Part shown: positions 15,357-52,873 of the stretch, piece by piece
How the letters are laid out: each line of letters begins with the position of its first letter
Numbering within the stretch: the stretch's first letter is position 1
NCBI GenBank assembly: GCA_950054255.1
Contig: CATLOR010000003.1
Coordinates: forward strand, 121,816 to 185,815
Source of the DNA: an uncultured Rickettsiales bacterium
GTDB lineage: Bacteria > Pseudomonadota > Alphaproteobacteria > Micavibrionales > GCA-2720935
Length of the DNA: 64,000 nt
Direction: 5' to 3'
Translations under genes and position numbers: made by a program
Notes under the pieces: generated by a model
What the model saw: the letters and a program-made list of their open reading frames with translations, nothing else
What the model was told of the DNA's origin: nothing
Databases searched by the model: none

Positions 15357-15376
15357 AGATAAAATCTATTTCATTC

Positions 15377-19795: not shown

Positions 19796-19892
19796 GACCC
19801 CTCCTCTCCAAAAGTCTATTATAAACACAGTGGAACGACATGAACCACTCTATATATAATAGGCAAAATATATGCCAATTTATTCTTCGACC

Positions 19893-20729: not shown

Positions 20730-20844
20730 GTATGAAATAACCTAGAATAGATTGATAGAATAAATATATCTTTGGTAATAGTATAAGATATTTTTGCGTT
20801 TGACAAACAAGAAATTCAATCTTTTCAATAAAATATGCATTTTT

Positions 20845-21378: not shown

Positions 21379-21565
21379 ACGGTTATCTTTGTTTTTATTT
21401 TGCTCACAACCATCATTATGTACAGACTTAACCGTCATATACGTTCACACTCTCCTTAACTAAAATTTTTGATACAAGCGGGAGCTAGCGTTAAAAGCCA
21501 TACTTAAGCCCCGCCAATCAGATCACATACAAAGTATGCATCTTTTTAAAATTAGTTATATCTTA

Positions 21566-22099: not shown

Positions 22100-22170
22100 C
22101 TCTGTATCTCCTTACTAAAACAATAAACGAATGTTATCTATTAACTTAAATGGCATCTTCTGAATTACGA

Positions 22171-22200
22171 ATTGTATAAAGACTATTTGTATAAAGACTA
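22171..22200. repeat. Perfect tandem duplication of the 15-mer TTGTATAAAGACTAT
   Basis: Read directly: 22171-22185 and 22186-22200 are identical. The repeat lies 72-101 bp upstream of the fimbrial subunit start at 22099. Confidence 0.9.
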
Positions 22201-22288
22201 TACCACAGTATCTAATAATAGCGCAAGCAGGTAAAAGAAACGTTAACAGCTTATGTCAAAAATAATAAAAATCAATAGATTATGTACT

Positions 22289-23488
22289 TTAAATAATTTT
22301 TACAATCTCTTGATAGTTATTGATTTTATTTAAAACATTCTTTTTTAATTTTTTTATCGTTTCACATGCAATTCCACTCTGTGCCCCCTCGCAGAGGCGA
22401 TCAAAGTGGCGAAAATACAACAGATTTGTCTCTATAATTTTCGACTCGATGTCATATATATAAGCCAAACACCTCTCCTCACTAAGCGTCGAATCCATTT
22501 GTGTGATAACGAATCCCAATATTCGACGCAAAGAGAGCGGCGCCACTTCACTCGGTATAAACAAATGACTTAATGTTGCATTCTTTTTAACATGGTCAAT
22601 ATACATAGCTGGGAAATAGCGTCCTAAATCTCGATAGCCTTCTGGTATCTCACCCAAAGGGACTGCGACATGATGCGCCTTTAAAGAAACCCGACCGACA
22701 TCTCCCAAATCAAACTCCATAGGAACCGAACATAGAAAAGGAGCTTCTTGGTATAAAAACCCATATTGCATCAATAAATCCAGACCATCAAAATAGCCAT
22801 AGTTTGTACAGATCTCATCCATAGGCTCAAAAGAAGGCAACATACGAACCCCCATATGAGCGCCTCCTTTTTTATTGTATAAATTATCATACCCACTGCC
22901 ATAAGCATCATGGTTCAAGAATTCAATAAAAGGAACAATGCATTTAACGGGTTTCGTACCAATACGCCTATTTAATTTACAATCAATCAGGCGGGACATA
23001 AAAAACGTAATCAGCACCATTTCATCATAAAGCTCTTCATCGCCCCAAACTTTTTGAATAAAGGCTTGGTTCTCATAATCGCGCGCTTTCAATAAATGCT
23101 CAACCAACGGTCTATCCGCATCACCTTTCAATTGACACCAGACCATATCCTTTTTATGAGCGGCGATCTTTCCTGTTTCATTATATAAAGACAGTAAAAG
23201 CTCTATGATTTTATAATTTTGATGATCATAATTCCCTTTAAAGTCATCAAGAACTAGATCATCTCCCTGCAAATCAAACGCAATTTCCTTAAACGGCGTT
23301 AGCGCATTATGAGGGATCTTCATCCAAAAAGGCTTCTCAGCCTTCTGCTTTGCTGTCACAGAAAAATTACCACCCTCTTCTTTTAAAACCAAAGACGGAT
23401 CAAAGTAAGCCCCTCTCTCTTTTAAAAGAGAAACCAACTCATTCAATTTTGTTTCTATATATGTATTGTTTGTTTGTATTTCAAACAT
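22289..23488 (-). CDS. Hypothetical protein, possible SET-domain (LSMT-like) methyltransferase
   Basis: 399 aa. IVPFIEFLNHD resembles the SET (L/I)VPxxDxxNH motif. MDEICTNYGYF resembles the SET GEExxxxYG motif. Confidence 0.35.
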   Translation of the reverse strand: MFEIQTNNTYIETKLNELVSLLKERGAYFDPSLVLKEEGGNFSVTAKQKAEKPFWMKIPHNALTPFKEIAFDLQGDDLVLDDFKGNYDHQNYKIIELLLSLYNETGKIAAHKKDMVWCQLKGDADRPLVEHLLKARDYENQAFIQKVWGDEELYDEMVLITFFMSRLIDCKLNRRIGTKPVKCIVPFIEFLNHDAYGSGYDNLYNKKGGAHMGVRMLPSFEPMDEICTNYGYFDGLDLLMQYGFLYQEAPFLCSVPMEFDLGDVGRVSLKAHHVAVPLGEIPEGYRDLGRYFPAMYIDHVKKNATLSHLFIPSEVAPLSLRRILGFVITQMDSTLSEERCLAYIYDIESKIIETNLLYFRHFDRLCEGAQSGIACETIKKLKKNVLNKINNYQEIVKII

Positions 23489-23627
23489 GAAGATCTGTGT
23501 TTTTTGAGCTTATTGATACTGTTATGTGTGATTTTTACATGAAATGATTGATCAATATATAAATTTATATATGATTATAGATCAATATAATACGTCCACA
23601 CCCAACATACAACCTACTTTATATATC

Positions 23628-26030
23628 ATGTCCACATCTCAAGAAACAGAAGTCACCCTCGAAAAAGCTCTTAACATTGCCTCTGTGCATATGAACCAAC
23701 AAAATTATCGTGTCGCAGAGCTCGTGCTGACCGATATTTTAAAAGCATATCCAGATGAAGAAAACGCGCATTACATGCTTGGGCTTGCTTATTATTTCAT
23801 TGGTGACCTCAATAAAGCCTATACACATTTAGCAACCGCGATCAAAAACGGCCAAGAAACGCCTGCTGAATGGTATTGCAATTACGGCATTATCAGCCAT
23901 CAAGCTGGACATCCTTCTGTTTCTATTGATGCTTTTGACCAAGGGATAAAAGCTGATCCAAGCTATGCGAACAGCTATTGGAACAAATCCCACATCCTGT
24001 GGCTAGAAGAACGCTATCAAGAGGCCGAAGAAGCGGCACGCCAAGGGATCAAAGTCGATGACAGTGTGCCGGAGGCTTGGATCAATTTAGGAACAGCCCT
24101 TGTTAAACAAGATGATCGCAATCAAGAAGCCTTAGAGGCCTGGGAAAAAGCCTTAACTCTTGCTCCTGATATGCCAGAGATTTGGAATAATATGGGGAAT
24201 TTATTACGTGATATGGGGCAATTAGAAGCCGCTATTGAAAAATGTCGCAAAGCACTCGACTTAAACCCTAATTACGCAGAAGCTTTAAGTAACCTTGCCA
24301 ATGCTATGTTTGACCTTGGGGATACTGACGAAGCTGAAGCCACCTATAAACGCGCTATTGACTTAAAGCCCGACTATGTCGAAGCCCACAACAACTTGGC
24401 TATTTGCCACATTTACCAAAGTCGCTTTGATGAAGGGATTAAAGAAGCACGTATTGCTCTTTCATACAACCCAAATCACAGCCAAGCACTTTTAAACTTA
24501 AGTATCTGCTATCGTTCTCTTGGTCAAATTGAAGAAGCCGAGAAAGCTGTGGCTAAAGCTGCCTTAGTCACCCCTGATTCACCAGAAATCCATATTGAAC
24601 TTGCTGACACACTCTTCATGCAAGATCGATACGCCGAAGCTGAGGTGGAATTAGAAAAAGCAAAAGAACTCAAACCAGACTCTCCTCGTGTTTACATTCG
24701 CCTCGCCAACACATATGAGCGCGGCAATAAAATTGAACAAGCCTTAGAGGCCATTGACAAAGCGGTTGAACTTAACCCTGAAATGATGGAGGCCTATTTA
24801 AGAAAAGGCTCTATCTGTCACATTTCCAACAGAATCCCTGAAGCTAAAGAGCATTTTGCAAAAGCACTCGAGAGAAAACCAGACTCTCTCCCTGCCCTTA
24901 TGGCGTTAGCCGACCTTCATCTATCAATTGGTGAGATCGAAGAAGCGAAAGACTATATCGAGAAAGTTAGACAAGTTCCTAACCATGAAACACCTGCGCT
25001 CTTCTATATTATTGGTAAAACAAAAAAATACACATCCATTGATGATCCTGATTTCCAAAAAATGCTTGAGATGGAAGCCCATATTGAACGCAGCGGTATC
25101 GATCAAGCAAGTGTCTTGCACTATGCTCTTTTCGATGCTTACGAAAATATCGGAGATAACGCTAAAGCCTTTGAACATCTCGCCAAAGGAAATGAATATA
25201 AAAGACGCTCAGTCCCTTATGATGCGGAACAGCAAAGTAAAAACTTTGCCAATATCAGAAAAAAATACACAACATCTGTCATCGATAGCTTTAAAGACAA
25301 AGGATGCCAATCCAAAACGCCTATCTTTATCGTTGGAATGCCACGTTCAGGAACAACTTTAACAGAGCAAATCATTTCATCGCATCCTCAAATTCATGGA
25401 GCCGGTGAATTAATGGAACTCAGCATGCTTGATTTCCAATTTGGCCCTATCAATGATCAAAATGCAAAAGACCAAGGCCAATGGTATGTGGACCGCGTTG
25501 AAAAACTCGCCAAAAGCACACCAAACGCTCTTCATGTCAGTGACAAAATGCCTGGAAACTTTTCTCATCTTGGTAAGATTTTATCTATTTTACCAAATGC
25601 AAAAATCATCCATTGTCGCAGAAATCCTATTGATACGTGCCTTTCTTGCTTTAAACAAAATTTCGCCCGCGGACAATATTGGTCTTACAACCTCGAAGAA
25701 CTTGCCGATTACTACAATATGTATCTAGAAATGATGGAGTATTGGCGCGAACAAATTGGTGACCGTTTCATAGAGGTTGATTACGAAGAAACCGTATCAG
25801 ACCTTGAAACTCAAGCGCGTCGGATGATTGATTTTATCGGCTTAGAGTGGGATGAGGCTTGCTTAACACCTCACAAACAAAAACGAGCTATTCTAACAGC
25901 CTCTAAAATGCAGGTTATTAAGCCCGTTTACAAAAGCTCTGTGAAATCATGGCAAAAATATGAGAGCGAATTATCACCTCTCATTGACGGCTTAAGCAAA
26001 GGAAAAGCCAAAGATTTGCTCGATTTATAA
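23628..26030 (+). CDS. TPR-repeat protein with C-terminal sulfotransferase domain
   Basis: A long array of 34-aa TPR units (..AWxNLGxxxxxxGxxxEAxxxxxKALxLxPxxxEA..). The C-terminus has the PAPS-binding loop IVGMPRSGTTLTEQI. I prefer the start at MSTSQ (23628). Confidence 0.75.
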   Translation: MSTSQETEVTLEKALNIASVHMNQQNYRVAELVLTDILKAYPDEENAHYMLGLAYYFIGDLNKAYTHLATAIKNGQETPAEWYCNYGIISHQAGHPSVSIDAFDQGIKADPSYANSYWNKSHILWLEERYQEAEEAARQGIKVDDSVPEAWINLGTALVKQDDRNQEALEAWEKALTLAPDMPEIWNNMGNLLRDMGQLEAAIEKCRKALDLNPNYAEALSNLANAMFDLGDTDEAEATYKRAIDLKPDYVEAHNNLAICHIYQSRFDEGIKEARIALSYNPNHSQALLNLSICYRSLGQIEEAEKAVAKAALVTPDSPEIHIELADTLFMQDRYAEAEVELEKAKELKPDSPRVYIRLANTYERGNKIEQALEAIDKAVELNPEMMEAYLRKGSICHISNRIPEAKEHFAKALERKPDSLPALMALADLHLSIGEIEEAKDYIEKVRQVPNHETPALFYIIGKTKKYTSIDDPDFQKMLEMEAHIERSGIDQASVLHYALFDAYENIGDNAKAFEHLAKGNEYKRRSVPYDAEQQSKNFANIRKKYTTSVIDSFKDKGCQSKTPIFIVGMPRSGTTLTEQIISSHPQIHGAGELMELSMLDFQFGPINDQNAKDQGQWYVDRVEKLAKSTPNALHVSDKMPGNFSHLGKILSILPNAKIIHCRRNPIDTCLSCFKQNFARGQYWSYNLEELADYYNMYLEMMEYWREQIGDRFIEVDYEETVSDLETQARRMIDFIGLEWDEACLTPHKQKRAILTASKMQVIKPVYKSSVKSWQKYESELSPLIDGLSKGKAKDLLDL

Positions 26031-28574: not shown

Positions 28575-29885
28575 ATGAAGTTTTTTGTTTTTATATGCGC
28601 ATTCACCCTGATGGTTCAGGCTTACACATTTTCTTTTGCAGAAAATGGTACTTTAACATTACAAGAAGCTATTAGGATTGCGCTTGAAAATAACCCTAAT
28701 TACAGCCAAACACTCAACCAAGAAAAGGCATCTGATGCCCGCGTCACACAAGCAAAATCATTTTACCTTCCTTCTGTAAGCCTACAAGCATCGAGTGGCT
28801 ACTCAAATGTTGATACCCCCTTAATCGAAGAAGAAACAACAGACAGTCAAAATATTGCTGTCACAATGACACAAAGACTTTTTGATGGCTTTGAATCAAG
28901 CAATCTAATAGATGAACAAAAAGCGTTAAACACCTCATCAGAAAGACAAGTTGAAAATGTTCAAGAAACGCTTGGTGTCGAGGTTGCTTTTAACTATATC
29001 AATATTTTGCGTTTTAAAGATTTCATGGAGAAGGTAAATGAAAATGTTAAAGTTCATTATGATATCTATGAGAAAATCAAACGCAATGTAGATGCTGGCG
29101 CTCTTACAAAAGCTGATCTGTACCAAGTTGAGGCGCGTTTAAGTCGCGCTAAATCAACGCGAGAAAATATCCGCCGTGATTTAATTGATGCTCAAGCAAC
29201 CTTTAAACGACTAGCTGGGTTTGACGCACAGGGTGTCTTAGAAAAACCTGAATTAGCTGCCTCCATCTTAACTGAAGATTTGAATACATTTATTGATGAC
29301 TCTGTTCAAAACAACCCAAATATTAAAAGCCTTATGGCTGATCGCGATGCGTCTAAATTTTCAATGGATGCTTCATCAGGAAAGTATTATCCGACTGTCG
29401 ATCTTCAACTTCAACGCAGTCAAGGCAAGAACCTAAATGGTATTGAAGGCAGTGAGAAAAGAGATTCAGCGCTCATAACAATGAATTGGGATCTTTATAC
29501 TGGTGGCTCAGATACCGCGCGTGTAAAAGAGAAAACATATCAATATTACGAAGCGCAAGATCGCCTAGAAGCTGGAGTACGTGCTTTAGAAAATGATATC
29601 CGCAGCACATGGGCAACACGTGTAAGTGCAGGATACAGAGCCGAAGAACTCCTTGCTCAAATCGATGCCAATGACAAGGTCGTACAGGCTTATCAAGATC
29701 AATTCAAATTATCAAGACGAACACTCATTGATGTTTTAGACGCACAAAACGAGCTTTTTGTTTCCAAAATCAATTACGTAGATGCTGTCTATTCTGCACT
29801 CTTCTCATCTTTAAGATTATTACAGTTTCGTGGCTCTTTGCTACATGACATAGGGGTTTATGATGCCAATCGATCAGGAGAATAA
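28575..29885 (+). CDS. TolC-family outer-membrane efflux/secretion protein
   Basis: 436 aa. Signal peptide and two repeated coiled-coil/beta halves. First gene of the T1SS operon, overlapping the ABC gene by 26 nt. Confidence 0.8.
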   Translation: MKFFVFICAFTLMVQAYTFSFAENGTLTLQEAIRIALENNPNYSQTLNQEKASDARVTQAKSFYLPSVSLQASSGYSNVDTPLIEEETTDSQNIAVTMTQRLFDGFESSNLIDEQKALNTSSERQVENVQETLGVEVAFNYINILRFKDFMEKVNENVKVHYDIYEKIKRNVDAGALTKADLYQVEARLSRAKSTRENIRRDLIDAQATFKRLAGFDAQGVLEKPELAASILTEDLNTFIDDSVQNNPNIKSLMADRDASKFSMDASSGKYYPTVDLQLQRSQGKNLNGIEGSEKRDSALITMNWDLYTGGSDTARVKEKTYQYYEAQDRLEAGVRALENDIRSTWATRVSAGYRAEELLAQIDANDKVVQAYQDQFKLSRRTLIDVLDAQNELFVSKINYVDAVYSALFSSLRLLQFRGSLLHDIGVYDANRSGE

Positions 29886-32061
29886 TATAAAGATATCCAT
29901 TAAGGACGTATCTGATCTTGAGCGACAAAAACTCGCTATGAAAGATCCTCTTATAGAATGCTTAATTTTGCTTGCACAAGAGCAAGGACGCACCATCTCA
30001 ACATCAGCCCTGCTTGCAGGTTTCCCTCTTCCTCAAGATGGATCAATTGGTCCTGATCTTTTTATGCGCGCCGCGCAAAGATTAAACTTATCAGCGCGTA
30101 TTATAAAAAGACCGCTTAATACACTTGCTCGATCCCCTGCTCTCCCTTGTATTCTGGTGTTAAAAGATCAACAAGCTTGTATTTTAAAATCTTGTAAAAA
30201 TGGTGTCTTGGAAACAGTTTTCCCTGAAACACCGAACGCGCCTACAAACATGACTGTAGAGGAACTCGAAAAACTCTATATTGGTTACAGCTTTTTTGTA
30301 AAAGGTCAAATGGAGCTTGATAAAAGAACAGGCCCACCGCCTATTTTAGAGAAACAAAACTGGTTTTGGGGTGCTATAAAAAAACATAAACGCATCTATT
30401 ATGATGTTTTTATCGCTGCTTTTATTACGAATATCCTTGCCTTAGCAAACCCGATCTTCATCATGAATGTTTATGATCGTGTTCTTCCCAATAATGCTTT
30501 TGATACACTTTGGGGGTTATCGATTGGTGTTTTTGTCGCTTTCTTTTTTGATTTCTTACTCAAAAATCTGAAATCTCATTTCTTGGATGTCGCAGGGCGT
30601 AAAGCTGATATTCAAATTTCATCCTCTATTTTTGAGCGTATCTTGGGAATGAAAATGATTGCACGCCCCCCAAGTGCAGGGGCACTTGCTTCTCATGTTC
30701 GAGAATTTGAAACGCTACGTGATTTCTTTACCTCTGCAACACTTGTGAGCATCATTGACTTCCCTTTTATTCTACTTTTCATTGCTATTATTTGGATCAT
30801 CGGTGGTTCTCTTGCTTTTGTTCCTTTGGTAATTGTGGCTCTCGTTATCTTAGCAGGCTATCTATTACAAAAGCCGTTATCAAAAGTTATTCATGAAAAT
30901 ATTTATGAGAATTCATACAAAAACAGCCTCTTCATTGAAGCTGTGAGTGGCTTGGAAACAATCAAAGCACAAGCTGCAGAAGGTCACAAACAACGTAAAT
31001 GGGAAGAAGCTGTTGAACAAACGTCTTTAACAGGTATTAAAGCTCGTGCTATTTCCGCCTTAAGCGTCAATCTATCAACCTTCGCAGCCAACATCTCTTC
31101 TGTTGGGATTGTTATTCTAGGTGCTTATCTTATTGCTGATGGATCGTTATCAACAGGTGCTTTAATTGCTTGTATTATTCTCTCCAGCCGTATTATGGGG
31201 CCTTTAACCCAGATTGCAGCTCTTTTAACTAAATATAATCAATCAAAAACAGCCTTGGAACAATTAGAAGAGCTGATGTCTGCGCCCGTTGAGAAAGAAG
31301 TGGGTGAAACCCTGATTTCAAAAATGGTATTCAAAGGAGATATTTCTTTTAGAAATGTGTCTTTCCGCTACCCTGAACAACAATCTGACCTGTTAAAAAA
31401 TGTTTCTTTTTCGATCAAAGCTGGAGAAAGTATTGCCGTGATTGGGGCTGTTGGCTCAGGAAAAACCACCTTGCAACGCTTGCTTTTAAACATCTATCAG
31501 CCAAGTGATGGCTCTGTTGAAATTGATGGCCTTGATGTACGCCAAATCGAATATGCCGACTTAAGACGCAATATTGGTGTGACACAACAAGATTCTTATT
31601 TCTTTTATGGATCGGTTAAAGACAATATTAAATTTGGCTATGAATTCGTTTCTGATGAAGCTGTCTTAAGAGCCGCGGCCTTGTCTGGTGTGATGGATTT
31701 TATGAAACATTCACCTCACGGATTAGACACTCAAATCGGAGAACGTGCTGAACGCCTATCAGGAGGGCAAAAGCAAGCGATCTCAATTGCACGTGCACTT
31801 TTATATGATCCACCTATTATGATTTTAGATGAACCAACAACCGCGATGGATCCTGGTTCTGAGCGTCGCTTGATTACACGTTTAAAATCTATTTTAAAAA
31901 CAAAAACGACGATTTTAATTACTCATAAAGGCACATTACTTGATCTTGTTGATAAAGTCCTCCTTCTAGATCAAGGACATGTCATTGCTTTTGGGGATAA
32001 AGATGACGTCATAAAAAAGCTACAAGGACAACAATTTAAATCCAAAGAGAAAAAAGAATGA
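29860..32061 (+). CDS. Type I secretion ABC transporter permease/ATPase with N-terminal C39-like domain (LssB type)
   Basis: 733 aa. N-terminal DPLIECLILLAQEQGRTISTSALLAGFPL, a six-TM domain, Walker A GAVGSGKTT, signature LSGGQKQ, and Walker B ILDEPT. Confidence 0.85.
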   Translation: MMPIDQENNIKISIKDVSDLERQKLAMKDPLIECLILLAQEQGRTISTSALLAGFPLPQDGSIGPDLFMRAAQRLNLSARIIKRPLNTLARSPALPCILVLKDQQACILKSCKNGVLETVFPETPNAPTNMTVEELEKLYIGYSFFVKGQMELDKRTGPPPILEKQNWFWGAIKKHKRIYYDVFIAAFITNILALANPIFIMNVYDRVLPNNAFDTLWGLSIGVFVAFFFDFLLKNLKSHFLDVAGRKADIQISSSIFERILGMKMIARPPSAGALASHVREFETLRDFFTSATLVSIIDFPFILLFIAIIWIIGGSLAFVPLVIVALVILAGYLLQKPLSKVIHENIYENSYKNSLFIEAVSGLETIKAQAAEGHKQRKWEEAVEQTSLTGIKARAISALSVNLSTFAANISSVGIVILGAYLIADGSLSTGALIACIILSSRIMGPLTQIAALLTKYNQSKTALEQLEELMSAPVEKEVGETLISKMVFKGDISFRNVSFRYPEQQSDLLKNVSFSIKAGESIAVIGAVGSGKTTLQRLLLNIYQPSDGSVEIDGLDVRQIEYADLRRNIGVTQQDSYFFYGSVKDNIKFGYEFVSDEAVLRAAALSGVMDFMKHSPHGLDTQIGERAERLSGGQKQAISIARALLYDPPIMILDEPTTAMDPGSERRLITRLKSILKTKTTILITHKGTLLDLVDKVLLLDQGHVIAFGDKDDVIKKLQGQQFKSKEKKE

Positions 32062-33401
32062 TCAAATTTGATTGGCGTAATTTTAATCTAGGAACCCTAG
32101 ATTTAACACGGAAGAATGATGAAGAAATCATTCATGATGGTCATGCGCGCTGGACTGATCGTCTTCTCTTATACACATCTGGTGTTGTTCTCCTCTTCTT
32201 TATTATTTGGGCTAATTTCACAACGGTTGACGAACTCATTAGAGGAGAGGGTCAAGTCATCCCTTCTTCTGAAATTCAAATTGTTCAAAACCTTGAAGGT
32301 GGGATCGTAGAAGAATTTCTGGTCAATGAAAATGACGTTGTTGAACAAAATCAATTGCTTTTAAAAATGAGCAACATTCAATATAGCGCTGAATACCAGT
32401 CACAGCTCTCTCTGTATTTAAACCTTCAGGCAAAATTAGTACGTTTAAAAGCAGAAGCAGAGAGAAAAGAACCGCTCTTCCCAGAAGATCTATTGCGTCT
32501 TGCCCCTGATATCGTTCAACGTGAAATTGAGGCATTCAAATCAAATGTCGCCAGTTTTATAGGACGAAAAACTGTTCTAGAAAAACAACTTGAGCAAAAA
32601 CAACAGCAAGTTAAAGAAGTCGACGAACGTTTAAGAGGATTAACAAAACTGTTGGCGCTCAGCAAAGAAGAGCTTGCAATGATGCAGCCTCTCTTTGAAA
32701 CGGGTTCTGTTTCAAGACGCGATTTAATTGCCTTAGAAGGTAAAGTAACAGAGCATCAAACATCTTATAATAACCTTAAAATTGAAAAAGAAAGAACAAA
32801 AGCAGCGGTTCATGAGGCTCAACAAAAGCTTTTCGAATTAACCAACTCTTACACGGCGCAAACACGAGAAGAATTAAACAGTGTTTCAAGCGAGGTTGAA
32901 AGCCTTAAAAAAGCACTTACCGCTTATCGTGACAGAGAAAGAAGAACTGAAGTCAGATCCCCTGTTCATGGTATTGTAAAAGACATTAAAATCAAAACCA
33001 TTGGTGGCGTCGTCCAGCCTGGTGAGCCTTTGATAGAAGTCGTTCCTTTAGAAGATCAACTCATTGTTGAAGCCTCTGTGTCCCCTTCTGATATCGCCTT
33101 CTTAAAGCCTAACATGACCGCCAAAATAAAGCTCACAGCCTATGATTATACAATTTATGGAAGCCTCGATGGCGAAGTCATCGAAATCAGCGCTGATACA
33201 TTGAAAAATCATGATGGAGCTTCCTTCTATCGCGTCAAAGTCAAAAGTAATGAACAAGCTCTCACTTACGAAGGCAAACGCCTAGAAATCATCCCTGGTA
33301 TGGTTGCGCAAATTGATATCTTAACAGGTAAGAAAACCATTATGAGCTACTTATTAAAGCCATTTAAAAAGACATTTGATAACGCTTTCCACGAAAGATA
33401 A
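32058..33401 (+). CDS. HlyD-family type I secretion membrane fusion protein
   Basis: 447 aa. Single N-terminal TM, long coiled-coil and C-terminal beta-barrel region. Overlaps the ABC gene by 4 nt. Confidence 0.85.
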   Translation: MIKFDWRNFNLGTLDLTRKNDEEIIHDGHARWTDRLLLYTSGVVLLFFIIWANFTTVDELIRGEGQVIPSSEIQIVQNLEGGIVEEFLVNENDVVEQNQLLLKMSNIQYSAEYQSQLSLYLNLQAKLVRLKAEAERKEPLFPEDLLRLAPDIVQREIEAFKSNVASFIGRKTVLEKQLEQKQQQVKEVDERLRGLTKLLALSKEELAMMQPLFETGSVSRRDLIALEGKVTEHQTSYNNLKIEKERTKAAVHEAQQKLFELTNSYTAQTREELNSVSSEVESLKKALTAYRDRERRTEVRSPVHGIVKDIKIKTIGGVVQPGEPLIEVVPLEDQLIVEASVSPSDIAFLKPNMTAKIKLTAYDYTIYGSLDGEVIEISADTLKNHDGASFYRVKVKSNEQALTYEGKRLEIIPGMVAQIDILTGKKTIMSYLLKPFKKTFDNAFHER

Positions 33402-33501: not shown

Positions 33502-33975
33502 TTGTTTAAAAACAAATTAAAAACACTCTTATTCGCACTCACCTTAACACTTTCGACAACAGTGTTGAGCGTGCAGTCTATGGCGCAAAACTTAAACTGC
33601 GTCCAGCCGCTCCTTTTTGGAGAGATTGCCCGCTGTGGCAGTACAGGAACGGTAACGATCCACCCTGATGGGACATACACATCCTCGTGTGTTGATGTTG
33701 TTTTCCCACCAACAGAGGCCTTATGTGTCGTAACACAGTTTTTAGGGTTGCAAAATATCGTGATAAGCGTTGATACAACGAGCGTTTCTATTTCAAATGG
33801 CTCTGACAATATGACTGTGGATGATTTTAATATTGTTTCAAACGGCAACGGCCCAACTTTTGTGACAAATTCAACAAATACAGAAGTGCCAATTGGTGCA
33901 ACGGTTACACTTTCCTCATCTCAAGGTGCAGGTAACTATTCTGGGACTTTTACCATATCCGCCAACTACGAATAA
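33502..33975 (+). CDS. DUF4402/spore-coat-U-like secreted protein, third paralogue
   Basis: TTG start, signal peptide MFKNKLKTLLFALTLTLSTTVLSVQSMA, LLFGEI motif, and C-terminal GNYSGTFTISANYE. Confidence 0.55.
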   Translation: MFKNKLKTLLFALTLTLSTTVLSVQSMAQNLNCVQPLLFGEIARCGSTGTVTIHPDGTYTSSCVDVVFPPTEALCVVTQFLGLQNIVISVDTTSVSISNGSDNMTVDDFNIVSNGNGPTFVTNSTNTEVPIGATVTLSSSQGAGNYSGTFTISANYE

Positions 33976-34098: not shown

Positions 34099-37000
34099 AT
34101 GGCAGGAGCTTTTCATTTGTCATTTGCGGCGTTAGCAGATGTCAATGGGTCCAACCCAATCAGTCTTGAAGTTGTAGTCAACGGTGTCGTCTTGGCAACC
34201 GTATCCCCTCTTGATGGTTCTAACAATTTCGAACTTCTTTTAGATTATTCAGGTCTTCAGCCCTCATCTGTTTCTTTCCGATTTGCCTCTGGATCAGGAA
34301 ATAGCGGTGATAGCGTTACATTTACCGATGTTGAGATCAATCGAAATGACCTAAATACGAGCACTGAACTAAGCTCTTCTTCTATCTCTGTTGGACAAAG
34401 CGCCCTTTTAACACTCACATCTTCTGATTTTTATTCTACGCCTCCCACATTAGGGGCTGCGACTATTTCAGGAACAGCAAGTGATGATGAAACCCTCAAT
34501 GGGGGTAAACTCGCCGATATTATTGATGGGATGGCTGGTGATGACCGCATTCGTGGACGCGCTGGCTCAGATGAAATCACTGGCGGTGATGGAAATGATT
34601 TAATTTTCGGAGAAGATGGCGATGACACCATTCTTGGTGGTGATGGGAATGATACGCTGTTTGGTAATAATAACGATGATATCCTCTATGGTGAAGACGG
34701 GAATGACAACCTCATTGGAGGTGATGGTGATGATATTCTGGTCGGTGGGAATGGCACAGATTTTATCCTAGGGAATGCTGGAAATGACATTCTATTTGGT
34801 GATGAAGGCAATGATATGCTCATTGGAGATACAGGCGACGATATTTTAATCGGTGGTATTGGTGATGATCTTCTTATTGGTGGTTCAGGTGATGATGCTA
34901 TTTCAGGTGGTGATGGCAATGATCAAGTATTGGGCGATGATGGCAATGACTTAATTGACACTGGTGCGGGCGATGACCAAATTCTTGGCGGCGCTGGAAA
35001 TGACACAATTGCTTCTGGTACTGGGGAAGATATCATCTTTGCTGGAAGCGGTAATGATGAAATCTATTCTGGCGATGATGACGATACCGTTTATGGCGAA
35101 GATGGCAATGATGTCATTTATGGCGAAGATGGCGTTGATATCATTCATGGTGGCGGCGGATCAGACACAATTTATGGCGGTGAAGGCAATGATATTATAC
35201 ATGGTCACGGATTAGACTATGACGGCATTTTCTCTCTTCTCGCGGCTAATCCTAATGTTTCTTATTCTCTCGAAACAGGCAGTTTTTATCAATATGTGAA
35301 TACAGGTGGCTTTATAACACATGACGCCGCACAGACTGCTGCTGAGAGTGCGACATTAAATGGTATGAATGGACATTTAACCGTAATCACGTCGCAGTCA
35401 GAACAAGACTTCCTTGACGGCATATGGGATAATGCAAATGCTTGGATTGCTGGATCAGATAGCGCAATCGAAGGCACATGGGCTTGGGACACAGGGATTG
35501 AAACAGGAATCTATTTCAGTAACAGCTCGGGCAGCTCTCTTTTCAATATGTATGAAAACTGGCAATCAGGTCAGCCTGATGGCGGTGCTTCAGAAAATCA
35601 AATTTATATGCTTAATAGTGGCGGTTCTGTTTGGGCTGATCGCGGAGCAAGTGCTTCAGGCGTAACAGGCTATTTCATTGAATGGGAAGCTGGGGCTATG
35701 TCTGATGATTTAGGGGCAGACGTGATCGATGGCGGTAATGGAAATGACATTATATATAGTTATGGCGGCAATGACACAATAACGGGCGGCGCTGGTGATG
35801 ACTTTATTAGTGCGGGTGATGGCAATAACGATATCGATGGTGGCTTTGGTGTAAGCGTTATCTCAGCTGGTGATGGTAATAACACGATCGTCACAAGTAC
35901 CCAAGCCGATTTTATTTATGTAGGGACAGGGACAAATACAATTGATGCTAATTCTGGTAACAATGTTATTTATTCTGGTGATGGCGCAGACACAATCGAT
36001 ACTGGCAATGGTGATGATTATATAAGTGCAGGTGGCGGTAATAACATCATTGATGCGAGCACTGGAAATAATACAATTTATACAGGTACTGGGAGCAGTA
36101 CAATTACTACAGGAAACGGTATTGATTATATTGAGGCTGGTGACGGGAATAATAATATCAATGCCGGAGATGGTGACAACACAATTTACTCGGGTAATGG
36201 AGATAGCACTATTACTACAGGCACTGGTATAGATTATATAGATGTTGGTGACGGTGACCACACAATTAATGCCGGCACGGGGAATAATACAATTTACGCA
36301 GGAACAGGTATCAACGACATTACGACCGGTGATGGTATTGATTATATCGAAGCTGCAGATGGAACAAATACAATTGATGCTGGAAATGGCAATAATGACA
36401 TCTATTCAGGCTCTGGCGATGATACAATTGATGCTGGCACAGGTGATGACTATATCGAGGCTGGTGATGGCGACAACACCATTAATGCGAGCAGCGGTCA
36501 AAATGAAATCTATAGCGGTTCAGGACATGATAACATCACAGCCGGTAATGGAAGTGACTATATCGAAGCTGGCGATGGGAATAACACAATTAATGCAGGC
36601 ACTGGCGAAAATGAAATTTACAGTGGCGAAGGTAATGACCTCATCACGACTGGTGACTCAAATGATTATATTGAAGCTGGAAACGGAAACAACACGATTA
36701 CCGCTGGGGCTGGAGAAAATGAGATTTACTCAGGTTCAGGCTTAGACATTATCACAACAGGAAACAGCAATGATATTATCGACGCTGGCGATGGCGACAA
36801 CGAGATTGAAGCTGGAGCTGGCACAAATATAATTACAACAGGCTCAGGCAATGATGACATTGATACGGGTGATGGCAATGACACCATCAATGCCGGTGAT
36901 GGAAATAATACAATCATCGCTGGAGCTGGCACGAACTTTATCTATTCGGGTGTTGGCAATGACAATATCTACACTGAAGACAATAATGACTATATCGAAG

Positions 37001-39111
37001 CTGGTGATGGTGACAATGATATTAGTGCTGGTGGTGGTACAAACGAGATTTATTCTGGTGCTGGTAATGACACGATTGATACAGGAAACAATAATGACAC
37101 GATTGATGCTGGGAACGGGAATAACACAATTAATGCTGGTGATGGACTAAATGATATTACATCAGGCTCAGGTAATGACATTATTAATACCGGGTCAGGT
37201 AATGATACGATTGAGGCTGGTGATGGTGATAATCAAATAAATGCCGGTGCGGGTCAAAACGAGATTTATTCCGGTTCTGGAAGTGACACAATCGATACAG
37301 GTGATGGGAATGATTACATTGAATCTGGCAATGGTGGTGACACTATTAATGCAGGCAATGGACAGAACCAAATCTATACAGGAAGCGGATCAGACACAAT
37401 TACAAGTGGCTTAGGAAACGATACGATTGAAACTGGTGATGGTGATGATTTTGTCGATGCTGGCTTTGGCAATGATACCGTTGCTGCGGGAGCAGGAAAT
37501 GACACAATCACCTATGAAAATGCAAGCTCTGCGGTAACTGTCGATTTAAATGTCACAACGATGCAAAACACAGGTGGGTATGGACAAGACACCATTAGTG
37601 GCTTCGAAAATATTATTGGCTCAATTTATAATGACATTTTAACTGGAACAGCCGTTGCTAATATTATCTATGGACTTGACGGTGACGATACAATTAATGC
37701 GGGCAATGGAAATAATACAATTTATGGTGGATCAGGGACAAATAATGTGATTTCTGGTACAGGAGATGACTTTATTAATACTGGAAATAATTCAGATACC
37801 ATTAATGCTGGTGATGGTGATAACACAATCGAAGCTGGCAATGGCACAAATAATATAACATCTGGCTCAGGCAATGATAACATCACTTCTGGAAGTGGTG
37901 GTGATACAATCGTCGCGGGGGATGGAAATAATACAATCGAAGCGGGCTCTGGCGCGAATAACATTACTTCTGGCTCTGGCAATGATGACATCACTTCTGG
38001 TAATGCAAATGATATTATCGACGCAGGTGATGGAAATAACACAATCGCTGCAGGTAACGGCACGAATAACATTACATCAGGTAGCGGTAATGACGACATT
38101 ACCACTGGAAACGGAAATGATACAATCACAGCCGGTGATGGAGATAACACAATCGTTGCTGGAAACGGAACAAATATCATCACAACAGGATCTGGCACAG
38201 ATATTATAACATCTGGTAGTGGCAATGATACAATTGTTACAGGAAATGGCGATGATACGATCACCAGTGGGGCTGGCAATGATACAATTACCGTTGGTAC
38301 ACAAACAGTACCTGTTGTAAACGCAACAACATTTACAGAAGATTTCGGTTTCTTCCAAGGTGGTAACGGAACCATTATTGAATTAGGAGATGATATCGGG
38401 ATCACGATTGATGGGAACTTATGGACGAGATCTCTTTTTGATTACACAATCACCGCGAATACTGTCATTGAGTTTGATTTTAGAAGCACCCTTCAATCTG
38501 AAATCTCCGCAATTGGGTTTGCCGATGATGATGGCAACAATTATGGGCAAATGTTTAATATATATGGTACTGAGGACAGAGCCTATGCCGATGAGTTTGC
38601 CTATGACGGCTCTGGGAATTGGACTCATTACGAAATCAATGTAGGTGCATATTACACAGGCACATATTCTAGATTATTTATCGTCAATGATGATGATGGC
38701 ATTTTTAGCACAGATGGTAACAGCTCATGGAAAAATATTATAATTCATGAAGGTGATTCAGGTGATAGCATTATCAATGCGGGTACTGGCCTAGATACAA
38801 TCTATGCTGATGGTGGTATGGATACTTTTATCTTCGACAATATAAATAATACAGATGTCATTCATAATTATAATGCCCAAGATGGCGATGTCCTTGATAT
38901 CTCTGATATTCTTATCGGATATACAGGATCTTCGGATATCAATGACTTTGTGAATTTCACAAATTCTGGCAATGAACATACAATTATGTCTGTTGATGTC
39001 GATGGAACAGTTGGCGGTGCTAACTTTGTTAATATCGCAGAACTACGTGGACAGGCAGACATGCTGGATGAAACAACCCTTCTTGCAAATGGCAATATTG
39101 TTGTCTTTTAA
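34099..39111 (+). CDS. Giant secreted RTX-like repeat protein with embedded C-type-lectin-like domain and T1SS C-terminal target domain
   Basis: 1670 aa. Classical GGxGxDxUx repeats occupy about 34500-35210. A CTLD-like segment at 35281-35690 contains WIAGSD..EGTWAWDTG..WQSGQPDG..VWAD. About 90 variant nonapeptides occupy about 35710-38295. The C-terminal GDVLDISDIL..VDVDG..LLANGNIVVF resembles the VC_A0849-class T1SS signal. Confidence 0.85.
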   Translation: MAGAFHLSFAALADVNGSNPISLEVVVNGVVLATVSPLDGSNNFELLLDYSGLQPSSVSFRFASGSGNSGDSVTFTDVEINRNDLNTSTELSSSSISVGQSALLTLTSSDFYSTPPTLGAATISGTASDDETLNGGKLADIIDGMAGDDRIRGRAGSDEITGGDGNDLIFGEDGDDTILGGDGNDTLFGNNNDDILYGEDGNDNLIGGDGDDILVGGNGTDFILGNAGNDILFGDEGNDMLIGDTGDDILIGGIGDDLLIGGSGDDAISGGDGNDQVLGDDGNDLIDTGAGDDQILGGAGNDTIASGTGEDIIFAGSGNDEIYSGDDDDTVYGEDGNDVIYGEDGVDIIHGGGGSDTIYGGEGNDIIHGHGLDYDGIFSLLAANPNVSYSLETGSFYQYVNTGGFITHDAAQTAAESATLNGMNGHLTVITSQSEQDFLDGIWDNANAWIAGSDSAIEGTWAWDTGIETGIYFSNSSGSSLFNMYENWQSGQPDGGASENQIYMLNSGGSVWADRGASASGVTGYFIEWEAGAMSDDLGADVIDGGNGNDIIYSYGGNDTITGGAGDDFISAGDGNNDIDGGFGVSVISAGDGNNTIVTSTQADFIYVGTGTNTIDANSGNNVIYSGDGADTIDTGNGDDYISAGGGNNIIDASTGNNTIYTGTGSSTITTGNGIDYIEAGDGNNNINAGDGDNTIYSGNGDSTITTGTGIDYIDVGDGDHTINAGTGNNTIYAGTGINDITTGDGIDYIEAADGTNTIDAGNGNNDIYSGSGDDTIDAGTGDDYIEAGDGDNTINASSGQNEIYSGSGHDNITAGNGSDYIEAGDGNNTINAGTGENEIYSGEGNDLITTGDSNDYIEAGNGNNTITAGAGENEIYSGSGLDIITTGNSNDIIDAGDGDNEIEAGAGTNIITTGSGNDDIDTGDGNDTINAGDGNNTIIAGAGTNFIYSGVGNDNIYTEDNNDYIEAGDGDNDISAGGGTNEIYSGAGNDTIDTGNNNDTIDAGNGNNTINAGDGLNDITSGSGNDIINTGSGNDTIEAGDGDNQINAGAGQNEIYSGSGSDTIDTGDGNDYIESGNGGDTINAGNGQNQIYTGSGSDTITSGLGNDTIETGDGDDFVDAGFGNDTVAAGAGNDTITYENASSAVTVDLNVTTMQNTGGYGQDTISGFENIIGSIYNDILTGTAVANIIYGLDGDDTINAGNGNNTIYGGSGTNNVISGTGDDFINTGNNSDTINAGDGDNTIEAGNGTNNITSGSGNDNITSGSGGDTIVAGDGNNTIEAGSGANNITSGSGNDDITSGNANDIIDAGDGNNTIAAGNGTNNITSGSGNDDITTGNGNDTITAGDGDNTIVAGNGTNIITTGSGTDIITSGSGNDTIVTGNGDDTITSGAGNDTITVGTQTVPVVNATTFTEDFGFFQGGNGTIIELGDDIGITIDGNLWTRSLFDYTITANTVIEFDFRSTLQSEISAIGFADDDGNNYGQMFNIYGTEDRAYADEFAYDGSGNWTHYEINVGAYYTGTYSRLFIVNDDDGIFSTDGNSSWKNIIIHEGDSGDSIINAGTGLDTIYADGGMDTFIFDNINNTDVIHNYNAQDGDVLDISDILIGYTGSSDINDFVNFTNSGNEHTIMSVDVDGTVGGANFVNIAELRGQADMLDETTLLANGNIVVF
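35710..38295 (+). repeat. Intragenic array of 27-nt (nonapeptide) repeats, consensus I-x-(A/S/T)-G-x-G-x-(N/D)-x
   Basis: Visible 9-aa periodicity in the translation (IDAGNGNNDIYSGSGDDTIDAGTGDDYIEAGDGDNT...). It is interrupted at about 37500-37690. Confidence 0.85.
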
Positions 39112-43710: not shown

Positions 43711-44328
43711 TTACTCATCGTCTGTTTTAAAATTATTGTACTCTTTTGTTGTGAGAGATCTTGTGGCGTTTCCATCCCTAATATAAAAATCGCCCCTCTG
43801 GTTTGTGAATACATGCTTTGCTGATTTCTCAATCTCAATTCTTAGGACTTCTTTATCATCCACCCGCTCAAACTTTATGCGGTACAGTCGATCAACTGCG
43901 CCATCTATATTGCTTCGGATTGCGCTCCTTAGGGCTAACTCAAACTTATCTTTGTTACGCTCACGTTTAATTAGGGTCTCTATTCCAACTACAGTGGAGT
44001 TATCGGCAACTCCCAATATAATTTCACCGCCGTCAGAGTTTGCAAAAGCGACAATGGTCTTAACCAGACCATCGTAAGGGGATTTTCTTTTGCTGTCCTC
44101 ACTAAGCGTTTCTTTAAATTCTAATCGGCCATGCTCCTTCTCGTTTAGAAGTTCTTGAATGTCACGCCATGGCTTTTCTCCTTTTGGGAATTGTTTGTCA
44201 CCGATTAAATAGCCAGCTCCAGCTGCTAGTAATGCCGGTACCCATCCACCTAAAGGCAGTGCTACCAATGCCAGCCCTGCCGATATGCTGCCGACTTTAA
44301 TTTTTCTATCCATATTACGTTGCTCCAT
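43711..44328 (-). CDS. Membrane-anchored AlbA_2 (Schlafen-like, divergent-AAA) domain protein
   Basis: N-terminal hydrophobic segments (GSISAGLALVALPLGGWVPALLAAGAGYLIG), then LEFKETLS..IVAFANSDGGEIILGV, which is typical of AlbA_2. Confidence 0.6.
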   Translation of the reverse strand: MEQRNMDRKIKVGSISAGLALVALPLGGWVPALLAAGAGYLIGDKQFPKGEKPWRDIQELLNEKEHGRLEFKETLSEDSKRKSPYDGLVKTIVAFANSDGGEIILGVADNSTVVGIETLIKRERNKDKFELALRSAIRSNIDGAVDRLYRIKFERVDDKEVLRIEIEKSAKHVFTNQRGDFYIRDGNATRSLTTKEYNNFKTDDE

Positions 44329-45802
44329 ATTTTCTTAGTACATCCAATAGTAAAACCATCGCATAAGTATCCTGCTTACAATATTCGATAAGGTTGTCCC
44401 ATAAGGCTGGTTGTTCAGTTTCTGGCAAGATTCCATTTATGAACGCATTGTATTGCAGCATAGCATCACCACCGTGAGATATTTCTAGATCATCATAGCT
44501 GAGATCAGTAAAAGCAGGTAATACGGCTTTAATCGATGCTGAGCTTTTTTGGTTTGGATTATAGAGCCAGCGTTTTCTAAATGGCTCGAGCAAATCAATT
44601 ACCCTAGAATTAATGGCGTTTAAGGCAGGTGCATATTCAGGAAAATCACTGGCCAGATCATTGTTGCGGGCAATCTCAAAAGACTGGTTATAAACTATGA
44701 CGTGACCGTCCACGCCACATAGCTCGATAAGTTTCTCAGCAAAAAGTCGGCGCGGGTCGGTCTGCTCTTTATGCAAATATTCATGATGCACCAATTCTGC
44801 GTCTGGACTTTCTTGTATATGAACGGAGAATTGAAACGGTATCTGTTGATATGGCCTCGTTCCATCAAAAAGAGGAATGGCTGGATTAATCGTCTCATAA
44901 TCCAAAAAATACAGCGGATATTGTAGATGGTCTAGAAAGCCTTTTACGTTGGCGCGATCAATGATGGTCTCCCCGCTTAAATAGCTTTCGACATCCAAAC
45001 TCTTTACACCGCCCGGGCGAATATGATCAGGTAGTTTTTCAATAGCTACACCGTGCTGACGCGACAGATCTTCGGCTTTCTTCTTTTGAAAGACATCATA
45101 CACAGAATAATCCGGTACATGCTTCCAGCAATGATCACGGTAATCACACTCAAACGGTGCGAAACACCGCGCACCGATTGATACGTCTGGCTCTTTTTTG
45201 CGCTCGAGAACATAGCCAAGCTGTCCAGCGACAGCCTCAACTTCAGCTTGCCTAGAAAAGACGTCACCAGATATATCTTCAAGTTTAAACAAAAGCTTTG
45301 GATCAATATCCCCAGCGCGGATATAGCTATTATCCAACACCATCATAAAGCACTTGCGGATTTTGTACCCAGCGCCGTTAAAGACATGATATTGAAACGC
45401 CATGTCATCGAGGTGATAATCTTTGACACTGGTAGAGCTTTTAACCTCGATCAAATCCCATTCATTACTCCCGCTGACGCGCTTTAAAATGTCAATGCGG
45501 GAATAGCCACCATCAATCGGGTGCATTGCTGTAGCTTCAAAAATAATATCATGACCGTCTTTGATAAATTGCTGTGTAGATTCAATCGCGCCTTTCACAT
45601 CCCAATAGGCATTTTTGACCTCAGCCCCACCGTCAAAATAGGACATAGCCAGCGCACCAATCTCATTCCCCGCATCAAACCGCGCTTGCGTCTGCGCATC
45701 AATCTCTGGGGCAAGGTCTTTACGATGGCGATACAACCACAAAGCCTTCGGGCATTGAAGACCCTTTACGTACTGAGATTTTGAGATTGTATGCTTATCC
45801 AT
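44315..45802 (-). CDS. DUF2779-like protein: Cas4/RecB-type nuclease with Cys cluster plus DnaQ-like exonuclease region
   Basis: N-terminal ISKSQYVKGLQCPKALWLY, a Cys triad CFAPFECDYRDHCW, then YFLDYETINPAIP (DxE) and CKQDTYAMV (late Asp). Confidence 0.55.
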   Translation of the reverse strand: MDKHTISKSQYVKGLQCPKALWLYRHRKDLAPEIDAQTQARFDAGNEIGALAMSYFDGGAEVKNAYWDVKGAIESTQQFIKDGHDIIFEATAMHPIDGGYSRIDILKRVSGSNEWDLIEVKSSTSVKDYHLDDMAFQYHVFNGAGYKIRKCFMMVLDNSYIRAGDIDPKLLFKLEDISGDVFSRQAEVEAVAGQLGYVLERKKEPDVSIGARCFAPFECDYRDHCWKHVPDYSVYDVFQKKKAEDLSRQHGVAIEKLPDHIRPGGVKSLDVESYLSGETIIDRANVKGFLDHLQYPLYFLDYETINPAIPLFDGTRPYQQIPFQFSVHIQESPDAELVHHEYLHKEQTDPRRLFAEKLIELCGVDGHVIVYNQSFEIARNNDLASDFPEYAPALNAINSRVIDLLEPFRKRWLYNPNQKSSASIKAVLPAFTDLSYDDLEISHGGDAMLQYNAFINGILPETEQPALWDNLIEYCKQDTYAMVLLLDVLRKYGAT

Positions 45803-45883
45803 GAATAGAAAGTTACTTGATTATTCTTAAATTTTCCACTATTTTCTCATTACTACCCATTTACACCAAAGATCAGGAAAGTC

Positions 45884-46075
45884 ATGGATAACGACATAAT
45901 GACAATGAAAGAGGTCGCTGAGTACCTCAAATTAAATGAAAAGACAGCCTATCGTTTAACCTCAGACGGTAAGCTTCCAGCATTTAAAGTTGGCGGTAGC
46001 TGGCGTTTTCGTAAATCAGAGATTGACGAATGGACAAAAAAGCAAAGCAATATGCAGAACCAGCAGGATAAATAG
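45884..46075 (+). CDS. Excisionase/MerR-type helix-turn-helix DNA-binding protein
   Basis: 63 aa. MTMKEVAEYLKLNEKTAYRLTSDGKLPAFKVGGSWRFRKSEIDEW fits the HTH_17 pattern. Confidence 0.7.
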   Translation: MDNDIMTMKEVAEYLKLNEKTAYRLTSDGKLPAFKVGGSWRFRKSEIDEWTKKQSNMQNQQDK

Positions 46076-46078
46076 ACC

Positions 46079-49773: not shown

Positions 49774-49784
49774 AGGAATAAATA

Positions 49785-51704: not shown

Positions 51705-51715
51705 GGTGTGATTGA

Positions 51716-52870: not shown

Positions 52871-52873
52871 AGA

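Follow-up and report, generated by a model that had tools for sequence, protein, structure and literature searches.

A cysteine-free C-type lectin-like domain in a putatively type I-secreted RTX protein of an uncultured alphaproteobacterium

Does an RTX (repeats-in-toxin) protein of an uncultured alphaproteobacterium contain a genuine C-type lectin-like domain (hereafter CTLD), and what might such a domain bind? The question is raised by a 64,000-nucleotide stretch of DNA (GenBank assembly GCA_950054255.1, contig CATLOR010000003.1, positions 121,816 to 185,815 of the forward strand), referred to here as the window and numbered from its first letter. A first-pass annotation of the window, made from the letters alone, had described a CTLD with a galactose-type motif between two calcium-repeat arrays and had proposed a Ca2+-dependent adhesin or toxin, possibly aimed at a eukaryotic surface. 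We found that the segment is a real CTLD from a large bacterial branch of Pfam Lectin_C that lacks cysteines, and that the protein that contains it is probably a surface or matrix glycan binder and not a toxin. The gene and the parts of the protein that surround the domain are as follows.

34099-39111, forward strand: RTX-CTLD gene, 1670 aa (open reading frame [ORF] list and translation; Pfam HemolysinCabind and Lectin_C)
34489-35223, forward strand: first RTX nonapeptide array, aa ~131-375 (Pfam HemolysinCabind; motif counts per 50-aa bin)
35224-35691, forward strand: C-type lectin-like domain, aa 376-531, of the cysteine-free bacterial subtype (Pfam, PDB matches, AlphaFold2, Foldseek)
35719-38358, forward strand: second, long RTX-type array, aa ~541-1420 (translation, Pfam HemolysinCabind, motif bins)

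Translation of the forward strand from 35281 to 35690 yielded exactly the peptide that had been quoted as CTLD-like, in frame within ORF 34099-39111. The placement between two calcium-repeat arrays was also borne out by Pfam, since RTX repeats (tandem GGxGxDxUx nonapeptides) flank the CTLD on both sides in 37 HemolysinCabind stretches (E 4e-161), the RTX-type nonapeptides occupying aa ~150-375 and ~540-1400. Of the boundaries originally drawn, 35281 and 35690, the start needs correction: the conserved domain begins ~18 residues earlier (aa ~377, nt ~35227). The additional N-terminal residues form a helix and a strand that are kept across the bacterial family, as seen in the alignment and in the AlphaFold2 model.

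The Pfam family Lectin_C (PF00059), whose gathering score is 22.6, matched the whole protein with 25.7 bits and the isolated segment with 30.7 bits (E 5.6e-7), so that the segment lies above the gathering score. When the segment was compared with all PDB sequences using phmmer, the 30 best matches and nearly all of the 60 listed were C-type lectin-like domains. CLEC4F was the best match (5e-5), and CD23, Mincle, langerin, MGL, tetranectin and type II antifreeze proteins were also found. A profile of 41 bacterial relatives matched DEC-205 (6e-18), CD23 (9e-15) and CEL-I (5e-14) in the PDB. The segment, whose likeness to the long-form consensus had first drawn attention to it, exceeds chance resemblance by a wide margin and is a true long-form CTLD with homology to the C-type lectin domains of animals.

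The structure of the domain was predicted with AlphaFold2. With the 41-sequence alignment, the prediction was a CTLD fold with a predicted local distance difference test score (pLDDT) of 94 and a predicted TM score (pTM) of 0.89, whereas the single sequence without an alignment reached a pLDDT of only 32. The CTLD fold is characterized by a pair of helices, a pair of antiparallel sheets, a long loop region and, in its long form, a hairpin at the N terminus. The elements of the model follow the order H-E-E-H-H-E-E-E-E-E-E, which is the canonical topology, with GYFIEWE as strand beta5. When the model was searched against the PDB with Foldseek, the 50 best matches were without exception C-type lectin-like domains of animals, for the most part carbohydrate-recognition domains (CRDs), each with a probability of 1.00 and a target-normalised TM score of at most 0.84. 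The QPD-type lectins CEL-I and MGL were included, and the best match was cow CD23 (6pwr; E 1.7e-9, target-normalised TM score 0.79).

The usual disulfide cysteines are absent, as originally noted; there is no cysteine in the CTLD, nor is there one in the entire protein. Paired as C1-C4 and C2-C3, these cysteines are a hallmark of animal CTLDs, but a match to the Pfam profile does not depend on them. The segment was placed in the cysteine-free bacterial branch, and not with the animal groups, because this lack of cysteine is common to 224 of 280 bacterial CTLD instances. These 280 full-length instances, which also serve for the motif counts below, were aligned from the 150 best cluster representatives of an exhaustive HMMER search that covered 1.84 billion cluster representatives.

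The positions at which animal CTLDs bind Ca2+ and sugar have the following counterparts in the domain.

35572-35580, forward strand: QPD (Q492-P493-D494), in the loop preceding strand beta3, the counterpart of EPN in CD23 (HMMER alignments, AlphaFold2 model)
35593-35598, forward strand: E499-N500, equivalent to E-D of the animal E(D/N)C motif (alignment to GEDC of CD23)
35632-35640, forward strand: WAD (W512-A513-D514), in strand beta4, equivalent to WND (HMMER alignments, AlphaFold2 model)

The coordinates that had been given for QPD and WAD are right. The tripeptide stands in its canonical position, and the Asn ligand position of WND is occupied by Ala513. The Cys position of the E(D/N)C motif is a Gln (Q501). 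Four of the five canonical ligands of Ca2+ site 2 are therefore kept in the CTLD (Q492, D494, E499 and D514), the Asn-to-Ala513 change being the exception.

Across the 280 instances, the tripeptide was EPD in 61, EPN in 61, QPN in 35 and QPD in 29, with others making up the rest, and its Pro was kept in 272. At the WND position, WND was found 126 times, followed by WDD (29), WAD (21), WSD (14), WYD (12), FAD (4) and others. The column of position 499 held E in 169 instances and Q in 48, and that of position 500 held D in 201 and N in 36. Expressed as shares of the site-2 columns, E or Q makes up 86% at position 492, P 97% at 493, N or D 74% at 494, E or Q 78% at 499 and D 90% at 514. Because oxygen-donor residues dominate the site-2 positions, these alignments suggest that a functional metal site is maintained across the bacterial CTLD family.

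The same site is variable among proteins of the same architecture. Their motifs include QPN/DN/WDD, EPN/ED/WND, NPN/EN/WSD, QPQ/E/WHD, NPD/WED and DPN/VYD, and the presumed Ca2+/sugar site (aa 485-516) differs between nearly all pairs of these proteins while the core is conserved. Judged from the sequences, this variation could reflect either diversification of specificity or relaxed constraint. A CLec-type domain diversified by a diversity-generating retroelement (DGR) was considered separately. This candidate was rejected because the window contains no copy of a template repeat (the best off-target blastn match was 19 nt) and because the reverse transcriptases of the window are Drt3a/Drt3b defence genes.

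The first-pass annotation had read QPD as specifying galactose-type ligands. Galactose-type CRDs, such as those of ASGPR and CEL-I, have a Trp near QPD that stacks on the sugar. The stretch that follows QPD in the window CTLD (QPDGGASEN) has no aromatic residue, which is likewise the case in 203 of the 280 instances, a count that concerns this stretch; an aromatic might be supplied by another loop. The Asn of WND serves in animal lectins as both a ligand of Ca2+ site 2 and a sugar ligand. In these lectins, EPN goes with mannose, fucose or glucose and QPD with galactose, and the role of WND is established too (PMC7618208). Our literature search found no test of the EPN/QPD rule in the cysteine-free bacterial branch. 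Since the tripeptide varies freely in the family, the WND Asn is absent and no aromatic follows QPD, the tripeptide is not readable as galactose specificity here, and it gives, on sequence grounds, a weak prior for it.

The exhaustive HMMER search also shows how widespread the domain is. It found 3202 relatives at E<=1e-3, of which 806 reached <=1e-10 and 63 reached <=1e-30. The 150 best representatives had a median length of 1292 aa; at least two CTLD copies were present in 128 of them, one protein having 18 to 27 copies depending on how they are counted, and at least three RTX nonapeptides were present in 67. Other carriers of the CTLD have cadherin-like, Big_9, SLH, dockerin, PEP-CTERM and bacterial TSP3 modules, and Lectin_C was called in all of them. 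An extracellular lectin or adhesin role is favored because the partner modules of the family members are all extracellular.

The full architecture, in which an N-terminal domain, RTX repeats, a CTLD at aa ~380-540, more RTX repeats and a C-terminal signal follow one another, was found in ~20 of the 150 best representatives. By phmmer, 23 relatives have the C-terminal secretion domain in common, and many representatives have a CTLD at aa ~380-540. A Pfam scan of relatives yielded HemolysinCabind with one or two Lectin_C domains, and PA14 once (protein P0035). Accessory domains appear to be swapped within the family: Laminin_G_3 is present in one of the two paralogues of locus L007 and in P0022 (locus L004), and PA14 in P0035. 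Two other searches were narrower. A contig search of GTDB species representatives with the single domain found one Rhodospirillales metagenome-assembled genome (MAG), at 47% identity, the genome of the window itself being apparently absent from that set, and a word-indexed homologue search returned nothing with the domain alone and 16 short proteins with the profile. The relatives are named in databases as [quoted passage not shown] (MCB1532175.1) or "Ca2+-binding RTX toxin-like protein." An identical RTX-CTLD protein was found on contigs in 41 blocks of metagenome assemblies. Thus the CTLD is not rare; the domain is already detected by Pfam, and the architecture already recurs in public sequences. 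A literature search of incomplete coverage found no characterized canonical CTLD in an RTX protein and no description of a bacterial Lectin_C family, which may be experimentally unexplored.

The remaining parts of the RTX-CTLD protein and the genes directly upstream bear on how it would leave the cell.

34099-34488, forward strand: N-terminal domain of ~130 aa (phmmer against retrieved relatives; no Pfam family)
38371-38763, forward strand: C-proximal conserved domain of ~130 aa, aa ~1425-1555 (phmmer against relatives)
38854-39051, forward strand: C-terminal type I secretion target domain, VCA0849 subclass, aa 1586-1651 (TIGR03661)
28575-29885, forward strand: TolC-family outer-membrane component (Pfam OEP, 8e-52; TIGR01844 type_I_sec_TolC, 266.5 bits, cutoff 225)
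29860-32061, forward strand: LssB-family ATP-binding cassette (ABC) permease/ATPase with an N-terminal C39-like domain (TIGR03375 type_I_sec_LssB, 894 bits, cutoff 693)
32058-33401, forward strand: HlyD-family periplasmic adaptor (TIGR01843 type_I_hlyD, 378 bits, cutoff 209)
33502-33975, forward strand: DUF4402 protein, encoded after the secretion genes and before the RTX gene (Pfam DUF4402, 2e-21)

The C terminus of the RTX-CTLD protein scored 38.5 bits with TIGR03661 (cutoff, 17.6). The LssB-type transporter has the Pfam domains ABC_membrane, ABC_tran and Peptidase_C39 (25.6 bits). A C-terminal target domain and TolC, ABC and HlyD genes directly upstream are thus both present, as in a type I secretion substrate. 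The start codon at 34099 is supported because ~20 homologues align, at their N termini, from residue ~3 or 4 in phmmer comparisons. The N-terminal domain (aa 1-130) is common to ~20 cluster representatives of like architecture and has neither a Pfam match nor a Sec-type signal peptide. The C-proximal domain (GNLWKK..DYTITANTVLEFDFRS..EISGIGFD..) is common to five relatives (phmmer, 1e-23 to 6e-40). It has no Pfam match, and when its alignment was run as a profile against the PDB, nothing beyond the RTX tail was matched; the domain might serve as another binding module. The second RTX array has a short nonrepeat interruption near aa 1100-1150. The composition of the whole protein is 0 Cys, 308 Gly, 220 Asp, 193 Asn and 2 Lys, with a net charge of -265.

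The idea of a toxin found no support. The RTX-CTLD protein has no pore-forming region: the highest 19-residue Kyte-Doolittle mean was 1.58, in the N-terminal domain, and there is no cluster of hydrophobic helices. The RTX_toxin model NF033943 scored 379 bits, below its cutoff of 1000. No HlyC/RtxC-type acyltransferase was found among the ORFs scanned across the window, and the protein has just the two lysines. Pfam detected no enzymatic or effector domain in the protein. Because it lacks a pore region, an acyltransferase and an effector domain, it resembles neither a cytolysin nor a MARTX-type toxin. The marks of LapA/MpIBP-type adhesins are missing as well: there is no Ig-like extender array, Pfam seeing only RTX repeats and Lectin_C, and the CTLD lies in the N-terminal third, whereas such adhesins have their ligand-binding domains close to the C-terminal end. 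A eukaryotic target likewise went unsupported, since nothing ties the uncultured alphaproteobacterium to a eukaryotic host. What stands of the original proposal is the adhesin or surface lectin, which gene context makes plausible.

Gene context was compared between the window and the loci of relatives, and a recurring gene set proved common to the window and four of them (L004, L005, L007 and L008). The two recurring elements of the window, besides the secretion genes, are the following.

17045-23488, reverse strand, plus 33502-33975, forward strand: set of DUF4402, 278-aa and CarboxypepD_reg-like genes, with three DUF4402 genes in all
23544-26030, forward strand: tetratricopeptide repeat (TPR)-sulfotransferase, 828 aa, a TPR array with a sulfotransferase domain

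Upstream of the secretion genes, the window encodes a CarboxypepD_reg-like protein of 927 aa, a second protein of 278 aa, two DUF4402 proteins, a 399-aa protein, the TPR-sulfotransferase and an AMIN protein. Locus L005, from an NCBI Alphaproteobacteria MAG, has a DUF4402 gene, the RTX-CTLD gene, and genes for a TPR protein, a 395-aa protein, two DUF4402 proteins, a 278-aa protein and a protein of the CarboxypepD_reg-like kind of more than 1058 aa. Locus L007 has secretion genes, two tandem RTX-CTLD paralogues (5498-13597), a DUF4402 gene, a 270-aa protein and a TPR-sulfotransferase (15060-17423). A DUF4402 gene adjoins the RTX-CTLD orthologue in both L005 and L007. Locus L008 encodes a large beta-sandwich protein, a 273-aa protein with a faint PapD_N match and an AMIN protein. 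In L004, polysaccharide genes (GT2, PMT_2, a deacetylase, a sulfotransferase at 16383-17573 and GT4) surround the RTX-CTLD locus, and L003 adjoins the exopolysaccharide gene YjbH and a GT4 gene. Neither recurring gene set was present at L009. The DUF4402/278-aa/927-aa set may be an undescribed chaperone-usher-like fiber locus linked to the RTX-lectin. The recurrence of sulfotransferase genes near RTX-CTLD genes is also a hint that a sulfated glycan belongs to this pathway. As an association only, the gene context suggests a cell-surface or matrix role, possibly with a self-made glycan as the ligand.

The explanation that we consider moderately probable is that the CTLD acts as a Ca2+-dependent glycan-binding module in a secreted, noncytolytic RTX protein of the cell surface or matrix. 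The lectin or adhesin role is proposed because relatives pair RTX repeats with Lectin_C, and once with PA14, and because their loci hold polysaccharide and sulfotransferase genes. According to this model, the RTX-CTLD polypeptide, unfolded and free of disulfides, would be exported C terminus first by the adjacent TolC/LssB-type ABC/HlyD system, with the VCA0849-type C-terminal domain as the export signal. It would fold outside the cell upon binding the abundant extracellular Ca2+, the RTX arrays becoming rigid beta-rolls that serve as a disulfide-free scaffold. The CTLD would then bind glycan through a Ca2+ ion held by Q492, D494, E499 and D514. A polysaccharide of the cell itself or of a neighboring microbe would be at least as likely a target as a eukaryotic surface.

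Three steps of this explanation are inferred, namely that sugar is bound in a Ca2+-dependent way, that the protein is adhesive or acts at the surface, and that the neighboring secretion system is the one that exports it. Several points weigh against the explanation. The Asn that coordinates Ca2+ and forms a hydrogen bond with the sugar in animal lectins is A513 here, and compared with CD23 the loop from QPD to the Glu has one residue fewer. Sugars are not the ligands of many CTLDs, which bind proteins, ice or minerals instead, and type II antifreeze proteins are among both the PDB sequence matches and the Foldseek matches. The AlphaFold2 model is ion free and hence silent on the geometry of the Ca2+ site, and the evidence from gene context is guilt by association at five loci. 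Neither a LapG (BTLCP protease) nor a LapD (GGDEF-EAL) gene turned up in the ORFs scanned across the window, although such genes could lie elsewhere in the genome. A retention module was not recognizable, and inspection by eye showed no dialanine site for LapG cleavage of the form (T/A/P)AA(G/V), a pattern that LGAAT does not match.

One alternative is a variant of this explanation and differs from it on the target. By analogy, the CTLD might be a lectin for a surface polysaccharide, possibly sulfated, of the cell itself or of its neighbor, and might anchor the RTX protein to the envelope or to a biofilm matrix. RsaA of Caulobacter, a type I-secreted, RTX-containing surface-layer protein that binds lipopolysaccharide O-antigen, is the analogy for such anchoring. 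The TPR-sulfotransferase near the locus in the window and in L007, the similar TPR protein in L005, the polysaccharide genes around L004 and the YjbH and GT4 genes beside L003 all fit this possibility, as does the fact that the uncultured alphaproteobacterium shows no sign of host association. These are associations only, drawn from five loci, and we regard this narrower version as possible but tentative.

Somewhat more doubtful is a nonlectin CTLD, in which the sugar site has decayed and the domain binds protein, mineral or ice or acts as a folding or spacer unit between the beta-rolls. The change of WND to WAD, the shortened loop between QPD and the Glu and the presence of type II antifreeze CTLDs among the matches are in keeping with such a domain. 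So is the variation of the site within one architecture (QPQ/WHD, NPN/WSD and DPN/VYD), which could be relaxed constraint. However, four of the five site-2 positions keep oxygen donors, the cis-Pro is kept, and across the family E/Q, N/D, E and D prevail at these positions. Moreover, WAD or FAD occurs in 25 of the 280 instances, often together with QP(N/D), and therefore has the look of a subtype and not of random decay.

More speculative still, and in our view improbable, is an extension of the preferred explanation to the whole branch. Cysteine-free bacterial CTLDs would then be widespread Ca2+-dependent lectins whose site-2 residues are retuned between orthologues. In the alphaproteobacterial lineage of the window, the RTX-CTLD protein would work with the conserved DUF4402/PapD-like/beta-sandwich cluster and the TPR-sulfotransferase, for example, by docking on or cross-linking a self-made, possibly sulfated, surface glycan or fiber. 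Finally, an adhesin or toxin that is Ca2+ dependent, specific for galactose/N-acetylgalactosamine and directed at the surface of eukaryotic cells, in line with the first proposal, is very unlikely, since the canonical position of QPD, the animal rule for it (PMC7618208) and the QPD lectins CEL-I and MGL among the structural neighbors are set against a tripeptide that is hypervariable in a bacterial family for which the rule is not established, the missing aromatic and WND Asn, the lack of a pore-forming region, acyltransferase or effector domain, and the lack of a link to a eukaryotic host.

The remainder of the window bears on the identity of its host and contains several further features. 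The G+C content is ~39%. The taxonomic placement relies on the polynucleotide phosphorylase (PNPase) of the window, whose identity to named relatives does not exceed 71%; these relatives are all Alphaproteobacteria or Rhodospirillales MAGs. Adjoining the PNPase gene is a tandem array of three paralogues that belong to the histidine phosphatase superfamily (His_Phos_1; 7374-9234, forward strand). An Rfam scan of the window found no RNA genes. A defense island at 43711-56375 comprises two SLFN/AlbA_2 genes, DUF2779, a DEAD/ResIII helicase, T5orf172/MUG113, an MmeI-type restriction-modification enzyme (46079-48745) and a DRT3 pair, which consists of an RVT_1 protein (52874-54256) and Drt3b (54249-56375; 752 bits). 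At 57341-63995, on the reverse strand, the G+C fraction rises from ~0.36-0.42 to 0.47-0.49 and the genes resemble a phage tail module or prophage remnant; they encode a host-specificity protein of the TipJ family (58122-60377), DUF1833 and an RCC1-repeat protein of 552 aa that has a CBM_5_12 match.

For the window itself, the annotation gained is a type I-secreted RTX protein, as predicted, with one lectin-like module and two further conserved domains that have no family, and this single instance adds little beyond automated Pfam annotation. The wider meaning lies with the family. The textbook "animal" CTLD and its Ca2+-site motifs have a large disulfide-free bacterial branch, and the lack of disulfides would suit type I export and extracellular folding. 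The EPN/QPD rule should not be transferred to this branch without experiment. The bacterial CTLD family would be a reasonable target for glycan arrays, and its cysteine-free scaffold might suit lectin engineering.

The RTX-CTLD protein can be compared with four known groups. CLec-fold proteins, such as the tips of intimin and invasin and the DGR proteins Mtd and TvpA, also use a C-type-lectin-like fold as a ligand-binding tip, and binding-site residues vary between the relatives of the window CTLD as well. The intimin/invasin and DGR CLec families are not known to have a Ca2+/EPN-WND site or to be detected by PF00059. Unlike the DGR proteins, the window CTLD is not accompanied by a template repeat in the window.

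PA14 is the Ca2+-dependent sugar-binding module of the RTX adhesins MpIBP of Marinomonas primoryensis and MhLap of Marinobacter (PMC8092209, PMC6650083). These adhesins resemble the window protein, as predicted here, in being type I-secreted and Ca2+ dependent, with a sugar-binding module in a giant repetitive protein, and the relative P0035 has both Lectin_C and PA14. In contrast to them, the window protein has a CTLD in place of PA14 as its lectin fold, no tandem Ig-like extenders, and neither a recognizable N-terminal retention module nor LapG/LapD partners among the scanned ORFs.

Bacterial Lectin_C proteins have the same domain at 40 to 50% identity, and ~20 of the best 150 have the full architecture. 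The window protein differs from them in its single CTLD, where many relatives have two, in its unusually long second RTX array and in its combination of QPD, EN and WAD. Animal CRDs (CD23, SRCL, CEL-I, MGL/CLEC10A, MBP and SP-D; PF00059) have two or three disulfides, whereas the window CTLD has none. An insertion of ~16 residues separates the WxWxxG strand of the window CTLD from its YxNW segment, and the domain sits in a prokaryotic RTX protein and not in a membrane receptor or collectin. Nevertheless, the two have the same fold and significant sequence homology, and the WIG-type core (AWIAGSD), EGxWxW, xNW..G-QPD, E-N and W-x-D are in register on matching secondary-structure elements.

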